Positions 2,468-30,582 of a stretch of 32,000 nucleotides of DNA are shown piece by piece. Under the pieces are notes generated by a model. The model was not told the origin of the DNA. It saw nothing but the letters and a program-made list of their open reading frames with translations, and did no database searches. The DNA comes from Flavobacteriaceae bacterium (GTDB lineage Bacteria > Bacteroidota > Bacteroidia > Flavobacteriales > Flavobacteriaceae): NCBI GenBank assembly GCA_965224465.1, contig OZ245049.1:1830001-1862000 (forward strand), read 5' to 3'. The first letter of the stretch is position 1, and every line of letters starts with the position of its first letter. Made by a program: the position numbers and the translations under genes.

Positions 2468-2628
2468 ATACCAAATACATTTTCAAGTGACGGTTTAAAT
2501 AAAATTATTTTTTGTTCTAGCTAGGCGGAAAATCTAAGGATAGCCTTTTAGCTATCGTTCTGTTTTTCAACAACGACAGCACGTAGGACAAACTATTTAT
2601 ATCGATTATTTTGGATTGTAGTTGGTAT
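2468..2628 (-). repeat. Copy A of a dispersed about 160-bp intergenic element (inverted relative to copies B, C, D)
   Basis: ATACCAAATACATTTTCAAGTGACGGTTTAAA ... GGATAGC-CTTTTA-GCTATCGTTCTGTTTTTCAAC ... TATATCGATTATTTTGGATTGTAGTTGGTAT. Its reverse complement aligns along its length with 16373-16524, 27950-28123 and 30161-30314. It lies between the convergent rodA and deoR-type genes and starts 2 nt after the rodA stop. Confidence 0.85.
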
Positions 2629-15739: not shown

Positions 15740-16345
15740 ATGAAATCAACAGCTGCTTTTATCCTTTTAAACGGAATCCCTCCCCATAAACTCCCTAATT
15801 TAAATAAATACAAACTTGTTTGTGCGGTAGATGGTGCTTACAACCATTTTGTAAAACTTGGAATTGAGCCCGATCTAGTTACTGGAGATTTTGATTCTAT
15901 CGACAACATACCTAGCCATATAGAAACTATAAATACCTACGACCAAAATTTTGCTGATTTCCATAAAACCTTAACTATTTTAAAGGAAAGAGGGTACAAA
16001 AACATAGATGTGTACGGAGGCAGCGGTAAAGAACAAGATCATTTTTTAGGTAATATCAGTACTGCTTTACAATGGAAAGACACGCTTAATCTACGCTTTT
16101 TTGACGATTACGGATGCTATCTTTTTATCGATAAAATAATCCGTAAAACTAATATCAAAGGAAAAATAGTATCCTTAATTCCATTTCCTACAGCTACAGA
16201 GATTTACACAAAAGGACTCCTTTACCCATTACATAATGAATCTCTTACGTTTGGGCAACGCATAGGAACACGAAATACAGCCATTAATAATGATATAGAA
16301 ATTTCTTTTAACGAAGGTGCATTACTGGTCTATTTCGGGAATTAA
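15740..16345 (+). CDS. Thiamine diphosphokinase (thiamine pyrophosphokinase)
   Basis: 201 aa. It has a catalytic-domain motif LVTGDFDSI with DQNFADFHK, followed by a C-terminal thiamine-binding beta domain. Confidence 0.8.
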   Translation: MKSTAAFILLNGIPPHKLPNLNKYKLVCAVDGAYNHFVKLGIEPDLVTGDFDSIDNIPSHIETINTYDQNFADFHKTLTILKERGYKNIDVYGGSGKEQDHFLGNISTALQWKDTLNLRFFDDYGCYLFIDKIIRKTNIKGKIVSLIPFPTATEIYTKGLLYPLHNESLTFGQRIGTRNTAINNDIEISFNEGALLVYFGN

Positions 16346-16372
16346 CACCAACAGCATCAAAGAAAATAAAGA

Positions 16373-16524
16373 ATCAGCAATTACAATCCAAAACAACCGA
16401 TATAAAAAGTTTAGTTCACGTTATCGCGTAATTGAAAAACAGAACGATAGCTATAGCTATCCATCCCTTTTTTGCCTAGCTATAATTCCATTTCTAAACT
16501 GTCACTTAGAAATGTGTTTGGTAT
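16373..16524 (+). repeat. Copy B of the dispersed about 150-bp intergenic element
   Basis: ...CAATTACAATCCAAAACAACCGATATAAAAAG ... TTGAAAAACAGAACGATAGC-TATA-GCTATCC ... GCCTAGCTA ... CATTTCTAAACTGTCACTTAGAAATGTGTTTGGTAT. Its conserved terminal TAATACC (minus-strand reading) supplies the TAA stop of the 16524..17048 gene. Confidence 0.85.
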
Positions 16525-17048
16525 TATTCCTTGTTTTCAATTTTGAGAGACGCTATCAAATTTTTAAAATCTTGCTTTAATGCTCTCATTCCAGCTGTAT
16601 TAATTTTGGCATTGTTTAATATAAAATCATATTTATATATAGCATCTTTGTACCCTTCTGAATAGAAACCAATATGACTTTTATTTTTTTTATGCTTGAT
16701 TTTCACTTCTATCAAGTACCTATCATTTTTTTTAGTGATTTTTAGTTTTTTAAAACCATAAATGGGTATTCCAATCTTTTCTGTAGAAGCATGAGTTTCT
16801 TTTTTTATAAATAGAAAGAGGGTTTTATTAATTTCTCTAATAGAATCTTCTATTATCTGTGATGCGATCAGCTCATCATATTTACAGCTATTCAATTGGT
16901 GGTTTATTGCCTGTATTTTACTTTTTATGTTAGCCCTTAATGTTACTTGATTGGTTTTTGAAATTATTGTTTTCTTTATCCCGCAACTAGTAAAAAAAAC
17001 AATGAGTAATAAAATGAATAAATTATATGTGTTTTTAAAAGTCATCAT
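16524..17048 (-). CDS. Hypothetical lipoprotein
   Basis: 174 aa with a lipoprotein signal peptide and lipobox (LLLIVFFTSC). No family was recognised. It starts 10 nt downstream of the YwqK-like gene, so the two are probably co-transcribed. The region is very AT-rich. Confidence 0.6.
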   Translation of the reverse strand: MMTFKNTYNLFILLLIVFFTSCGIKKTIISKTNQVTLRANIKSKIQAINHQLNSCKYDELIASQIIEDSIREINKTLFLFIKKETHASTEKIGIPIYGFKKLKITKKNDRYLIEVKIKHKKNKSHIGFYSEGYKDAIYKYDFILNNAKINTAGMRALKQDFKNLIASLKIENKE

Positions 17049-17058
17049 TTAATACTAA

Positions 17059-17985
17059 TTATTTTGATTCATATAATTTTAGATTTCCGTCTTTATCTTC
17101 AGCATATCGGTTGTGCTTTTTTTGTATTCCGTTTTCAAATACAAATTCGTCATAATAGTTATACATAGGTTTGTATTCAAAATAACGTCCATCTAGTGGT
17201 TGATTATTTTTATAAGTACAGGCAACCATTTTATTAGTTAAAGGGTTTAACGTTTCATCTAGTATAAGCTGGTCGCTTTTATAGGTCATATTGGCAATTA
17301 GCTTGCCATTGCTATTATAAACCTTCTGAATACCTTCTCTTAAACTATTTTTGTAATATGTATAAACAGTATTATCTAGCAGGTTTAAAACTCTTAAGCC
17401 CTCTATGATTTTATTGTCTTTATAAATACCTAAACCTAACGGTCTTCCTTTAGCGGTTCGCCAATACACCGAATCCATTTCCCTGCCATAAATAATGGTT
17501 TTTAATATGTAATATTGATTTGGAGGGCTGTGTTCTATATCTTTAGTTATGATTCCATTTTTATAAAAGCGTTTTTTAACAACTCCGTTATACACACCGT
17601 TATAAATTTTTCCGTTTTTATATGCTGTGGTGTAATCTATATTTCCGTTTTTTAAGTACACTTTAGTTAAACCATGCAACACACCTTTTCTGTATGTTTC
17701 GGAGTTGGTAATTCCCCCCTGTTTATTATAGAAATTCACCTTCCCTTCCATCGTTTCATTTTCCAAATTAGAAAAATGCCCATCCATTTGTAAAACACCA
17801 TTTATGTAATAGTCTTTTATGTAAAAAAGTGAATCGTTTTTTTTATGAATCGTTCTATAAAAATAAGCTTCTTCTTTCGTTGCTGTTTTCCAGTCTTTAT
17901 CAAAATAAATTTCTGATTGGCTATAAACATTCCTACAAAAGAAGAAAGAGAAAAATGTAATTGTAATTATTCCTAAATGTTTCAT
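17059..17985 (-). CDS. Secreted YwqK-family / MORN-repeat-variant protein
   Basis: 308 aa with signal peptide MKHLGIITITFFSFFFCRNVYSQ. It has multiple degenerate repeats of the YxNG..xG / G.x.YYxNG type (MEGKVNFYNKQGG, LHGLTKVYLKNGN, TAYKNGKIYNG). Confidence 0.7.
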   Translation of the reverse strand: MKHLGIITITFFSFFFCRNVYSQSEIYFDKDWKTATKEEAYFYRTIHKKNDSLFYIKDYYINGVLQMDGHFSNLENETMEGKVNFYNKQGGITNSETYRKGVLHGLTKVYLKNGNIDYTTAYKNGKIYNGVYNGVVKKRFYKNGIITKDIEHSPPNQYYILKTIIYGREMDSVYWRTAKGRPLGLGIYKDNKIIEGLRVLNLLDNTVYTYYKNSLREGIQKVYNSNGKLIANMTYKSDQLILDETLNPLTNKMVACTYKNNQPLDGRYFEYKPMYNYYDEFVFENGIQKKHNRYAEDKDGNLKLYESK

Positions 17986-18257
17986 TTTATTATTTCGCTG
18001 AATTTAAGGTATAAACGCAACTTTTTGGTTAAAAATATTATTCATTACAAATATAGGGCTTTGATATGAACCTCTTTTCCAAGGTTTCTTATTTAATTTC
18101 CCTTTCTCCTATTTTATTACCAGTTCCGTTGGCATTCAAAACAATTTTATTTAGTAAAATAGTACTGAAAAAGCTCTTTGTTAGCAGCCTTTACCACAAA
18201 CGACATTTTAGGTGTTATTCTTTTCACATTTAACATTACAGAAACCCTGTTATTGAG

Positions 18258-18410
18258 AGTAATACATTCCCAAGTGACGGTTTAAAAATGAAATTATTTT
18301 TTAGCGGTTTGATTTTTTTTGCGTGAGGGATAGTAGTGGCATCCTTTTTTGTTTTTTTTACAAAAAAGATATAACGAATAGCCCGACCCTTGGGGCACGC
18401 CCAAATTGTT
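18258..18410 (-). repeat. Copy E, a diverged member of the intergenic element family with a GC-rich patch, next to the 3' end of the RAYT pseudogene
   Basis: The first 45 nt or so (AATACATTCCCAAGTGACGGTTTAAAAATGAAATTATTTTTT) match copy A closely. The interior keeps GCGG, GGATAG and a T-rich tract but is otherwise diverged. It ends in the GC-rich GCCCGACCCTTGGGGCACGCCC (18381-18402), which stands out in this AT-rich DNA. Confidence 0.6.
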
Positions 18411-18421
18411 AATATATTCTA

Positions 18422-19009
18422 TTAATTATCATTTTTATAGAATTTACCCTCGTTCCATTTTTTATTGGGTTGTTGATAATGTGATTGGATGTATTGTGAA
18501 ATGATTCGGTAGTTCTGATGATATGATCAAAATAACGGGATTACCATCCAAAATCTACGTGAATTTTACGGATTTCAAATGTGCATCTTCCTTTGTATCA
18601 CCGAATAATACGGGGAATATTTTTATAAAACATTGGATTATTGTCTCCTGTAATGCTACCAATATTGTTTGTGGTTTTAAGTTATACCAACTACAATCCA
18701 AAATGACGGTTTAGAAATGTATGTGGTATTGGTTCACGTTTTGGGATACGTTTATATCAACACCATCATACATATGATTTGGCATCACCACAAATTTACC
18801 CAATTTCACAAATGGGAAATGTTGCGGTATTTGATTCCAATATTTTTCTGCCATTTCACCTATTGCATTCAATTGCATTTTTTATCAATAATATCTCGAA
18901 AAAAACGCTCGATACTTTGGGTGAAAATGGCAATAAAACACACCGTATTACTTCCATAATCTCAATTTGGATTTCTGGCAGATTCTATACGGTATTTATT
19001 TTTATGTTT
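18422..19009 (-). pseudogene. Decayed REP-associated tyrosine transposase (RAYT; IS200/IS605-like Y1 HUH transposase) pseudogene
   Basis: Manual minus-strand translation gives KNKYRIESARNPN*DYGSNTVCFIAIFTQSIERFFRDIIDKK(fs)MQLNAIGEMAEKYWNQIPQHFPFVKLGKFVVMPNHMYDG...(46-bp insert)...NIPRIIR*YKGRCTFEIRKIHVDFGW*SRYFDHIIRTTESFHNTSNHIINNP(fs)KKWNEGKFYKNDN*. There is no start codon. In-frame stops lie at 18962-18964 (TGA where Trp is expected), 18598-18600 (TGA) and 18541-18543 (TAA). Homopolymer frameshifts occur near 18878-18883 and 18458-18463. The HUH motif has degraded to H-M-Y. Confidence 0.8.
18684..18729. repeat. 46-bp palindromic short unit of the repeat family, inserted inside the RAYT pseudogene
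   Basis: ATACCAACTACAATCCAAAATGACGGTTTAGAAATGTATGTGGTAT. The two halves are imperfect inverted repeats and match the termini of the long elements. The unit interrupts the RAYT reading frame between the HUH region and the IIRGYK region. Confidence 0.75.
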
Positions 19010-19040
19010 TTATAGATTTGCAATATCCCAGCTACGACTC

Positions 19041-19076
19041 CTTTGTAGAGGCGTGATTAATCGCGTCTCTACAAAG
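19041..19076. repeat. Near-perfect 36-nt palindrome overlapping the stop codon of the flavoprotein gene (terminator-like or REP-like hairpin)
   Basis: CTTTGTAGAGGCGTGATTAATCGCGTCTCTACAAAG. All 18 symmetric positions can pair: 16 Watson-Crick pairs plus 2 G-U pairs as RNA (the innermost pairs would stay open as the loop). No T-run follows on either strand. It lies between the flavoprotein gene 3' end and the RAYT pseudogene 5' end. Confidence 0.6.
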
Positions 19077-20277
19077 CCACTGATTGCCCTACAATCCATC
19101 CTCCTGTCCAAGCATTTTGGAAGTTAAATCCACCTGTAATGGCATCAATATTTAATATTTCCCCTGCAAAAAACAAATTTTTATGTAATTTACTTTCAAA
19201 GCGTTTGAAATTAATTTCTTTTAAATCTATCCCTCCTGCAGTTACAAACTCTTCTTTAAACGTGCTTTTTCCGTTCACTCGTAGCTTACACGATATCAAT
19301 TGATTGGCTAACGATTCCAATTCTTTAGCACTTATTTGTGCCCACTGACATTGATCTGGAATGTTTGCCGTTAAGACTAATTTTACCCATAATCGTTTTG
19401 GAATATCCTCAAAAGCAGAACGAATGCTCACGTGCTTTTTAGCCTGTGTTTTCTTTAATTTTCGTAAAACTTCTAAAACATGTTCTTTCCGTTTTGAGAT
19501 CCAATTCACTTCAACATCAAACTGATACCCTTGTTCTTCCAACTTACGTGCTCCCCAAGCAGATAATTTTAATACAGCAGGTCCACTCAAGCCCCAATGT
19601 GTAATTAATAAAGGTCCCGAAGCTTCCATTTTCTGCCCTAAAACTTTTACGGTAGCGTAAGGCACCGACAAGCCAGGGATCCCTTCCAACAAACGATGTT
19701 GAATATTAAAGGTAAACAAAGAAGGCACTGGCTTTACAATGTGATGTTCTAATTTTTCTACCAAATCCCACATTTTGGGAGTACTCCCCGTGGCAATCAA
19801 TAAGTAATCTGCCTTAAAAGAGGCTTCCGATGTTTGAATATTAAAAACATCTCCGTTTTTTAAAACGGACTGCACCCTGTGTTTTTTTAATACTTTTATC
19901 TTGTATTTTTCTACATGCTGTAAAAAACAATCGATAATAGCTTGGGAAGTATTTGCTGCTGGAAACACACGATTGTCATCTTCTATTTTCATTGGAACGC
20001 CGTGATTTTCAAACCACTCCATGGTATCTCCCGTCATAAATTGATGGAAAGGGCCCAATAATTCTTTAGCCCCACGCGGGTAAAATTTAACAAGTTCCTT
20101 TGGTTCAAAACAAGCATGCGTTACATTACATCTTCCACCTCCAGACACTTTTACTTTTTGCAACACGTTTCCGCTTGCCTCCAAAATAGTGATATCCAAC
20201 TCGGGGTTTAATTCCGCTGCGTTAATGGCTGCAAAAAAACCGGCAGCTCCTCCTCCTATAATTACAAATCTTTTCAT
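19069..20277 (-). CDS. NAD(P)/FAD-dependent oxidoreductase, HI0933/BaiN-like flavoprotein family
   Basis: 402 aa with an N-terminal Rossmann motif VIIGGGAAGFFAAINAA and the C-terminal block TAGGIDLKEI...FFAGEILNIDAITGGFNFQNAW typical of HI0933-like proteins. It starts 12 nt after the GYDIA kinase gene. Confidence 0.8.
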   Translation of the reverse strand: MKRFVIIGGGAAGFFAAINAAELNPELDITILEASGNVLQKVKVSGGGRCNVTHACFEPKELVKFYPRGAKELLGPFHQFMTGDTMEWFENHGVPMKIEDDNRVFPAANTSQAIIDCFLQHVEKYKIKVLKKHRVQSVLKNGDVFNIQTSEASFKADYLLIATGSTPKMWDLVEKLEHHIVKPVPSLFTFNIQHRLLEGIPGLSVPYATVKVLGQKMEASGPLLITHWGLSGPAVLKLSAWGARKLEEQGYQFDVEVNWISKRKEHVLEVLRKLKKTQAKKHVSIRSAFEDIPKRLWVKLVLTANIPDQCQWAQISAKELESLANQLISCKLRVNGKSTFKEEFVTAGGIDLKEINFKRFESKLHKNLFFAGEILNIDAITGGFNFQNAWTGGWIVGQSVAL

Positions 20278-27917: not shown

Positions 27918-27949
27918 ATTAACAGACCTCTAGTCCCACGGACTCAACC

Positions 27950-28174
27950 TAAAACAATTACAATCCAAAATGACCGATATAAATAGTTTATTTTATGTAC
28001 TAGCGTAGTTGAAAAACAGAACGATAGCGAAGGCTATCCTTAGATTTTCCGCCTAGCTAGAATACCAATTAAAATCCAAAATAATTCTATTTCTAAACCG
28101 TCACTTGGAGATTTAGTTGGTATAACAAAAAATAATACCAATTCTAAACTGTCACTTGGAAATTTAATTGGTAT
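27950..28174 (+). repeat. Copy C, a composite: long element ending in a complete short palindromic unit (28062-28123), plus a second tandem short unit (28135-28174)
   Basis: ACAATTACAATCCAAAATGACCGATATAAATAG ... TTGAAAAACAGAACGATAGC-GAAG-GCTATCCTTAGATTTTCCGCCTAGCTAGA, then ATACCAATTAAAATCCAAAATAATTCTATTTCTAAACCGTCACTTGGAGATTTAGTTGGTAT, then ATACCAATTCTAAACTGTCACTTGGAAATTTAATTGGTAT. Confidence 0.85.
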
Positions 28175-28260
28175 AACAGGTATTTAAAACGTTTCTAAAT
28201 TATTTTAGGAGCGTTTTTTTGTATCTTGCCCTATCAACATTAAACATAAAATTTTCCTAT

Positions 28261-30105: not shown

Positions 30106-30160
30106 GAAATACACTGATAGCACTTCGCATTGTGCATCTTCTAAATCACAACAAATAAAC

Positions 30161-30314
30161 ACAATTCAAGTACAATCTAAAACAACCGATATAAACAGTT
30201 TATTTTACGCTCTAGCGTTGTAAAAAAAAACAGAACGATATCCATCCATTTTTTACCTGGCTAAAACAAAAAATAAGTCCATTTACTAGCTGTCACTTGG
30301 AAATGTATTGGTAT
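30161..30314 (+). repeat. Copy D of the dispersed intergenic element (internal hairpin deleted)
   Basis: ...CAAGTACAATCTAAAACAACCGATATAAACAG ... AAACAGAACGATATCCATCC ... CATTTACTAGCTGTCACTTGGAAATGTATTGGTAT. It is collinear with copies B and C but lacks the GATAGC/GCTATC stem. Confidence 0.8.
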
Positions 30315-30582
30315 TACTTACTAAAGATTGTAAATCCTCAGGAACTTCAAATCCAAGTTTAATACTCCTTTCACTTAAACATCTCTTATGATTTTGTTTT
30401 TTCAAATTACTTCCGTCACTAAAAAATAACTTTCCTGTCAGATTGTTACTCATTATAAGTCATGAGCCAATTAGTAATGTCAATCGACTCAACCTAAGAC
30501 CAAAAGCATAAACCAATATAATTTCAGTTTATCCAATCACATACATTTCAATAAAAATTTATGACACTCTATAAGTTATTAT

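Follow-up and report, generated by a model that had tools for sequence, protein, structure and literature searches.

A probable new family of miniature inverted-repeat elements at gene ends in uncultured Flavobacteriaceae

The locus and its repeat family

The DNA considered here is a window of 32,000 nt from a Flavobacteriaceae bacterium (assembly GCA_965224465.1, contig OZ245049.1, positions 1,830,001–1,862,000; 33.7% G+C), in which a dispersed repeat bounded by TACC...GGTA accounts for seven insertions, viz. four long copies (A–D), two short derivatives (C1 and F) and one end fragment (E). The family appears to be an undescribed transposable element of the miniature inverted-repeat type (MITE), which is an ordinary kind of mobile element. 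An initial annotation of this DNA had proposed five shared long loci together with three short units; A, B, C and D are indeed long copies, whereas the fifth locus, E, proved to be a 57-nt right-end fragment abutting a Flavo-1 motif. Two of the short units were borne out (18684–18729, here F, and 28062–28123, here C1), but the third (28135–28174) is the right end of copy C itself, and copy C, which had been described as a long element with two short units in tandem, is instead a 159-nt element with C1 nested inside it. The boundaries of the element were taken as TACC...GGTA, and its ends were sharpened using copies from other genomes.

Copy A (2469–2627, minus strand; 159 nt) is full length with both terminal repeats intact; its neighbours are RodA/FtsW and DeoR, two convergent genes, and it sits 4 nt past the RodA stop codon, with TAA on the plus strand at either side (2466–2468 and 2628–2630). 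Copy B (16375–16523, plus strand; 149 nt) is found between the gene for thiamin pyrophosphokinase and an unannotated open reading frame (ORF); the first 4 nt of its left terminus have decayed, reading CAGC in place of TACC, and the TTA on its right flank (16524–16526) is the stop codon (TAA, minus strand) of ORF 16524–17048. Copy C (27952–28173, plus strand) sits between two POT-family transporter genes and is a long copy split by a nested insertion, the element proper comprising 27952–28062 and 28126–28173 (159 nt in total). The nested C1 (28063–28122, plus strand) is a 60-nt internal-deletion derivative made of the left 21 nt and the right 39 nt of an element, and the triplets that flank it, GAA and TAA, match at two of three positions. 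Copy D (about 30164–30313, plus strand), between a third POT gene and a thioredoxin-like gene, is likewise long, with a decayed left terminus, a deleted core hairpin, a 1-nt deletion in the right terminus and TTA as its right flank. The remaining two are smaller: F (18685–18728, plus strand) is a 44-nt deletion derivative consisting of the termini only, flanked by TTA and TTG and lying within a pseudogene for a REP-associated tyrosine transposase (RAYT; REP, repetitive extragenic palindrome), and E (18256–18312, minus strand) is the right-end ~57 nt of an element, with its outermost 6 nt decayed. Copies A–D are all intergenic, and the only ORF of ≥80 aa to overlap an element (16317–16580) is a mechanical read-through across copy B into both flanking gene ends.

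The repeat family is real and far above chance. A repeat search of the whole window recovers it as direct repeats D1–D3 and inverted repeats I1–I12, which link 2468–2629, 16356–16529, 27933–28179, 30145–30320, 18261–18302 and 18675–18719. With ≤3 mismatches there are four occurrences of the 23-nt right terminus, and the 27-nt left terminus is found three times, against 0.00 expected for each in 100 dinucleotide-preserving shuffles; an nhmmer profile built from copies A–D returns the four long copies with E-values of 1e-42 to 1e-50.

Members of the family in other genomes

An exact pattern of the right end (37 bits) was used to scan GTDB, with one genome per species, and returned 22 stretches. 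Recognisable family members are held by eight of these, all in four uncultured Flavobacteriaceae metagenome-assembled genomes (MAGs), with at least four in NORP167 (L001, L008, L011 and L021), at least two in NORP129 (L002 and L017), and others in NORP270 (L012) and NORP150 (L018). The A–D profile identified six near-full-length copies in two of the MAGs (four in NORP167 and two in NORP129; E = 1e-20 to 1e-47) and gave no nhmmer match in the remaining 14 stretches. Of these, eight belong to unrelated phyla, close to what a 37-bit pattern would return by chance, and six to further Flavobacterium or Flavobacteriaceae genomes. Outside the element, the sequence around each of the eight confirmed loci has nothing in common with the window, and the copies lie at unrelated loci in four other MAG species. 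A scan of JGI metagenomes with the same pattern returned 21 stretches with one weak true match; BLAST against plasmid and phage collections yielded no family match, and two scans of viral contigs gave chance matches only.

The copies are 79–92% identical to each other, and identity is as high between genomes as within one; the orthologous genes of the relatives share ~81–83% nucleotide identity with those of the window, and the surrounding intergenic DNA is unalignable. From the sequences, this pattern would fit continued activity from conserved master copies, transfer between lineages, or constraint on the core. Loci syntenic with the window, among them L050 of NORP167, were reached via homologues of the POT3 protein. 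Across the relatives, 106 kb of syntenic DNA, not selected for the repeat, holds one copy, compared with seven in the 32-kb window.

Anatomy of the element

Full length is canonically 159 nt (A, C once cleaned of its insertion, L002 and L017), with 160 nt in L001, and across all the elements size ranges from 44 to 193 nt, none of it coding. The left terminus reads TACCAATTACAATCCAAAATGACCG and the right terminus ...CCGTCACTTGGAAATGTATTTGGTA-3', the reverse complement of which is TACCAAATACATTTCCAAGTGACGG. As the initial annotation had described, there over about 30 bp, the two ends are imperfect terminal inverted repeats (TIRs); they span ~26 nt, with 14–21 of 26 positions agreeing within each copy; the exception is D, where the left end is decayed and agreement falls to 7/26. 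The termini pair with one another in single-strand DNA folds of A, L001, L002 and L017. The right end also forms a hairpin of its own, CATTTCTAA-ACCGTCAC-TTGGAAATG, with a 9-bp A+T-rich stem and CGTC inside an 8-nt loop.

Within one copy the variants of the left and right terminus tend to match (L002, L021, L008 and L011), which suggests co-evolution of the two ends or correction of one against the other. At the right end of copy C (28135–28174) there are two changes from the consensus, ATTCCATTTC to ATACCAATTC, and these yield an almost perfect palindrome (ATACCAATT/AATTGGTAT).

Between the termini lies the core palindrome GATAGC-N4-GCTATC, which is as originally described, i.e. a constant stem with a variable loop, lost from D in the MAFFT alignment of copies A–D plus E. 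The loops read TAAAAG, TATA, GAAG, TAAG, TAGG and TATG; a 4-nt spacer is seen in seven of the nine long copies, copy A keeps the stem around a 6-nt spacer, and the hairpin is deleted in D and truncated in L021. The short forms retain both termini and have no core, with a junction that is different in each (left plus right nucleotides: 21 + 39 in C1, 24 + 20 in F, 28 + 45 in L018, 30 + 28 in L050 and 43 + 30 in L012); they are therefore independent internal deletions of the long form, from which they had been supposed to derive. The long copies L008 (2121–2302) and L011 (4828–5020) of NORP167 have an extra 23–24 nt at the same place, after ...AAATAGTT, and therefore make up a subfamily. In L011 there is an additional insert, within which lies CCCGACCC, a string shared with the Flavo-1 repeat.

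Target-site duplication and empty sites

Flanking triplets were read just outside TACC...GGTA on either side, with each element taken in its own orientation. The flanks are TTA on both sides of A, L001, L008 and L018 and TAA on both sides of L002, L017 and L050; identical triplets thus bound seven of the eight copies in which both flanks are TTA or TAA (P = 0.035 for at least seven of eight, even if TTA and TAA were equally likely on each side independently, i.e. 50% agreement per copy). An inverted repeat that simply extended outwards would instead read TTA...TAA; the matching triplets point to a 3-bp target-site duplication, with which three further lines of evidence agree. In NORP167 the insertion point of the 58-nt unit of L050 coincides exactly with the thioredoxin-like gene's stop codon (...AAAGGGTAA[TACC...GGTA]TAAAATTTC...), with TAA on both sides, and the same site is empty in NORP150, NORP270, L052 and the window, which read ...AAAGAATAA... 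with a single TAA. Insertion of the nested C1 brought in the short unit and exactly 3 nt more: copy C without C1 and the TAA that follows it is exactly 159 nt long, and its restored junction, GCTAGAACAAAAAAT, is identical to that of copy A.

Mobility, it had been suggested, would be argued against by copies fixed at orthologous positions in distant relatives; presence/absence polymorphism is found instead, the sites of A, C and D being empty in relatives. At site C, alignments to four relatives end at window positions 27918–27922 and resume at 28174–28181, and the element is absent there. The spacers orthologous to site D in NORP150, L052 and NORP270 likewise lack it, those of NORP150 and L052 being shorter, and at site A the RodA–DeoR spacer is empty and measures 47 bp (L054) or 76 bp (L056), compared to 235 bp in the window.

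Other target schemes were also considered. In a manual check of the flanks, neither a 2-bp TA duplication (IS630-like) nor a 5-bp duplication fits all copies, and a fixed left target without duplication, in the manner of IS200/IS605, was ruled out because the right triplet changes in step with the left.

The placement of copies at gene 3' ends, which the initial annotation had pointed out, holds and is explained by the target being TAA/TTA. The triplet that was duplicated is itself a TAA stop codon in two cases, copy B and L050, and in copy A it starts one base past the stop.

The spacer that receives copy C differs in other respects between the window and its relatives. The POT2 gene of the relatives is followed by a hairpin, which copy C replaces in the window, and a terminator-like hairpin just upstream of POT3 (window 28186–28217; AAAACGTTTCTAAATTATTTTAGGAGCGTTTT then a T-run) is kept in all relatives and marks where homology restarts after copy C. 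Another repeat, TTCTCGATACAATTTT...AAAACCACTCGAACTGACG...GAGTGGTTTTTT, is present in one to three copies in the POT2–POT3 spacer of relatives (L049 2047–3008; L050 120–600; L047 9616–9913; L052 9698–9913) and is entirely absent from the window, where copy C fills the spacer. Further along, where POT3 is followed by the thioredoxin-like gene, NORP167 carries an inserted Fic/DUF4172 gene (L050 2585–3688), which neither the window nor the other relatives have.

The RAYT pseudogene and its own REP

The RAYT pseudogene (18460–19009, minus strand) is context for the family and not its mobiliser. It has 292 homologues (best E = 7.6e-55), several of them named RayT by JGI, together with a match to NCBIfam REP_Tyr_transpos at E = 4.4e-9, which is below the cut-off, and a weak match to Escherichia coli TnpA-REP (PDB 4ER8); Pfam returned nothing for the reconstructed pseudogene. 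Its motifs NHxH, WQ and YIxNNP fit subclass 2.4 of Quentin et al. 2018, the RAYTs of which go with long or 'double-foot' GT[AG]G REPs and hold REPs inserted in frame between their HUH and Tyr motifs (PMC6006769). The reading frame is shifted close to the N-terminus, carries two in-frame stops (IIR*YKG and FGW*SRY) and is interrupted by F, and the motifs themselves are altered, from NHMH to NHMY in the HUH motif and from YIxNNP to HIINNP in the catalytic one.

Four intact homologues (P0003, P0013, P0034 and P0001) carry an in-frame REP insert encoding VETRLIASL, which the window pseudogene does not have. In the DNA of L024 and L025 the intact RAYT is flanked by, and carries, GTAGAGACGCGATTWATCGCGTCTCTAC-type REPs, the L023 and P0001 proteins have the same VETRLIASL insert, and nhmmer found no TACC...GGTA unit in the three intact RAYT loci L023–L025. 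The window holds one canonical double-foot REP, GTAGAGGCGTGATTAATCGCGTCTCTAC (19045–19072, plus strand), on the 5' side of the pseudogene. This REP has the form GTAG...CTAC with a 13–16-bp stem (z = -4.8) and overlaps the stop codon of an HI0933-like gene (19069–20277, minus strand); the alignment of that gene to relatives begins only at 19074, and its last codons therefore appear to come from the REP.

F interrupts the pseudogene, as had been noted, in the variable region between the HUH and Tyr motifs, and its removal restores the frame: deletion of 18682–18728 (47 nt) rejoins the protein as ...NVNQLKTTNN.... Frame restoration alone cannot separate a 0-nt from a 3-nt duplication, 44 and 47 both being 2 mod 3, and only the 47-nt deletion avoids leaving a stop. 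F is an ordinary insertion that contributed to decay of the RAYT gene.

The surroundings of the pseudogene are themselves variable. A 2.7-kb segment (16346–19073) that holds copy B, the E fragment, Flavo-1, the RAYT pseudogene and the GTAG REP is absent from L047 and L052, in which thiamin pyrophosphokinase is followed after 116–250 bp by the HI0933-like gene; two ORFs within this segment (174 and 308 aa) have no Pfam match.

Flavo-1

At gathering thresholds the only Rfam match in the window is a Flavo-1 motif (RF01705; 18316–18392, plus strand; 63.4 bits against a gathering score of 42), which abuts the E fragment. Relaxing the limit to E ≤ 10 brought no Rfam match to A or C, and none of A–D is matched at gathering threshold across the window; Flavo-1 membership of A–D was rejected on this basis (A and C without a match at E ≤ 10, B and D without one at gathering threshold). 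A clean Rfam match had been named as something that would remove the novelty of the family, and this applies only to the core of E as first drawn, which is Flavo-1, and not to A–D. Like the present family, Flavo-1 (Weinberg et al. 2010, PMC2864571) is a dispersed, hairpin-forming intergenic repeat of Flavobacteriaceae, and one adjoins E, but A–D do not score against it, and in L011 and L012 it lies 1.7 and 4.8 kb from the MITE copies.

A Flavo-1 unit of ~100 nt (GCGTKAGGGATAG...CCCGACCC..GGGGMACGCCCAAA) is found at window 18316–18410, L011 3022–3097 and L012 449–530; these three species share it at 87–90% identity, in positions that do not correspond, and it is absent beside the three intact RAYT genes. 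In a published F. psychrophilum transcriptome, Flavo-1 matches are reported sense or antisense to transcribed regions, with many outside them (PMC9723704). In the present DNA Flavo-1 behaves like a dispersed DNA repeat, and it may be mobile and not a gene for an RNA.

Alternative explanations

The initial annotation had left three options for the family, i.e. a MITE, a REPIN-like element (a doublet of REPs) or a structured RNA, and of these the first is supported and the other two are not. If the repeats were REPs or REPINs, the termini would be single-stranded DNA hairpins recognised by the neighbouring RAYT, a Y1/HUH enzyme, and the long form would be an inverted REP doublet. In architecture there is a likeness to REP/REPIN systems and their RAYTs (Bertels & Rainey; Quentin et al. 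2018, PMC6006769), which share with the window family short hairpin-forming intergenic repeats, an inverted-doublet arrangement and collapsed single-hairpin forms, and in which 'double-foot' REPs can arise from an inverted dimer by central deletion (PMC6006769). The window does contain a RAYT pseudogene, with F placed between its HUH and Tyr motifs, just where subclass 2.4 RAYTs carry REP insertions (PMC6006769), and the E fragment ~150 bp beyond its 3' end, and the termini pair into a long hairpin when folded as single-stranded DNA. However, the in-gene copy F breaks the reading frame, which cognate REP insertions keep (PMC6006769), and the REP of this RAYT clade is a different sequence (GTAGAGACGCG...), the intact homologues going with GTAGAGACGCGATTWATCGCGTCTCTAC and VETRLIASL and not with the TACC...GGTA family, and the window pseudogene having a canonical REP on its own 5' side. 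Nor is there a conserved GT[AG]G foot, since the termini begin TACCAAT and the CTAC of A and F is TTAC, ATAC or TTAA elsewhere, and no RAYT was seen in the 8-kb stretches around family copies in the other MAGs. Single-strand transposition by HUH enzymes (IS200/IS605, TnpA-REP) leaves no target duplication, whereas the TACC...GGTA family has one of 3 bp. The family is excluded from the REPINs on three counts, viz. this duplication, a cognate REP of another sequence and a missing GT[AG]G foot, and an element of REP/REPIN type is extremely unlikely. The CGTC-tagged REPs (Di Nocera et al. 2013, PMC3733652), which have been reported from Bacteroidetes, Gramella forsetii among them, also bear a likeness to the right-end hairpin, with its 9-bp stem and CGTC; in those repeats CGTC is an unpaired tag at the foot of an 8–9-bp stem with a 4–5-nt loop and a CCA tail, whereas in the window it is part of the 8-nt loop ACCGTCAC and a CCA tail is lacking, which places the hairpin outside their definition.

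A role in RNA, whereby the repeats would be structured small RNAs or cis-regulatory modules of 3' untranslated regions or terminators, conserved for their fold and duplicated in the genome, draws on several of the same features: an intergenic location close to the 3' ends of genes, a core hairpin that is conserved apart from its variable loop, hairpins followed by T-rich tracts that look terminator-like on both strands, a core 79–92% conserved between species, and the Rfam 'sRNA' motif that neighbours E. Against this, the RNAalifold consensus of the nine long copies has an energy of -3.56 kcal/mol, includes a covariation term that is unfavourable (+0.87) and predicts only the right-end hairpin and one 4-bp stem; a single pair shows a double change, and the stems are invariant rather than covarying. 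The single-strand folds are only 0.9–3.8 standard deviations below mononucleotide shuffles, mainly through pairing of the termini, derivatives without the whole core persist and insert, and terminal repeats and a target duplication are features of DNA; taken with the lack of Rfam matches described above, these make an RNA family very improbable. It is also improbable, if a little less starkly so, that the repeat is a co-opted MITE, the core GATAGC-N4-GCTATC being kept by the host as a putative protein operator or bidirectional terminator. The fixed stem with a free 4-nt spacer in seven of nine long copies would suit such a role, copy C stands in for the hairpin that follows the POT2 gene of relatives, and a simple consensus scan finds the core hairpin terminator-like on both strands, which is a lead only, a consensus match being no evidence of function. 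The core stem is, however, only 6 bp long, and the element has survived loss of the hairpin in D, L021 and every short form.

A MITE and its likely partner

The repeats very probably constitute a new MITE family, carried by a small clade of uncultured Flavobacteriaceae, with a length of 159 nt, imperfect TIRs of ~26 nt and a 3-bp TAA/TTA target-site duplication. The family has TIRs, a 3-bp duplication, presence/absence polymorphism and a nested insertion, and is spread over several species. In these respects it is like the MITEs derived from insertion sequences (ISs) in prokaryotes (PMC10969869), sharing a small non-coding element (44–193 nt), TIRs, a short duplication, dispersed intergenic copies, internal-deletion variants and insertion polymorphism between relatives. 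It differs in that the parent IS was not found in ~0.4 Mb, and the family is so far found only in the genome of the window and the four Flavobacteriaceae MAGs (NORP129, 150, 167 and 270).

The enzyme responsible would be a DDE-type transposase, most likely of an IS5-family (ISL2-like) or IS30-family element. Elements of the ISL2 group, within the IS5 family in the ISfinder scheme, make 2–3-bp duplications, and those of the IS30 family combine a 2–3-bp duplication with 20–30-bp repeats, features by which IS30 fits the window footprint equally well. Most IS5 groups have GG/GA ends, which the window termini (TACC...) do not match. The eukaryotic PIF/Harbinger transposons, defined by 5'-TWA-3' duplications, are related to bacterial IS5 (PMC4482050), and a 3-bp A+T triplet duplication is common to IS5/ISL2, PIF/Harbinger with its Tourist-like MITEs and the present family (TAA/TTA fits TWA), a resemblance of footprint only.

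In the mechanism that we propose, the transposase would act in trans, binding the terminal repeats and cutting the TAA/TTA triplet with a 3-nt stagger, and gap repair would then leave the triplet on both sides of the element, as a cut-and-paste or copy-paste footprint. The partner element would be bounded by TACCAATTACAATCC...GGTA plus TWA repeats. Internal deletions between the termini give rise to the hairpin-like derivatives of 44–73 nt that keep both ends, at least some of which sit in clean insertions. Because TAA is the common stop codon in this genome of 34% G+C, and there would be selection against insertions within genes, surviving copies would pile up at or just after stops.

Several points weigh against a MITE with these properties. 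No autonomous IS with these TIRs was found in ~0.4 Mb of related DNA, nor in the plasmid, phage, viral or metagenome collections, and no second TIR pair enclosing a transposase was seen in any locus examined (~0.4 Mb). L050 is the only base-perfect empty site, the spacers at A, C and D in relatives being too diverged, and the duplication is imperfect or absent in L011, L021, C1 and F and in the left-decayed B, C and D. The flanking triplet tends to be uniform within a genome, and on the flank tally alone the triplets may instead be subfamily-specific ends. The sample is also a small one, of 15 elements.

A bolder version of the MITE interpretation, which we consider unlikely, is of an element that seeks stop codons by means of a TWA-cutting, ISL2/Harbinger-like transposase hitherto undescribed in Bacteroidota, an element that would be more than selfish DNA, with its core and the T-tracts that follow it on both strands kept as a bidirectional terminator or protein-binding site at the 3' ends of genes; a core kept for function would explain the 79–92% cross-species identity amid unalignable intergenic DNA. 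Linked to this is the possibility that insertion of the element inactivated the RAYT of this genome.

Implications

The ends, length, target and derivatives of a mobile repeat are hereby defined for little-studied, uncultured marine and subseafloor Flavobacteriaceae, which should keep such repeats from being called small RNAs, REPs or spurious ORFs in annotation and makes them usable as a marker for strain typing and as bait for the partner transposase. There is also a cautionary side, in that a hairpin repeat beside, or even inside, a RAYT gene need not be the REP of that RAYT, and only comparison with intact relatives, together with a target duplication, tells the two apart. For the source genome itself, the density of copies in the window hints at an expansion of the family, which may have reshaped many 3' intergenic regions.

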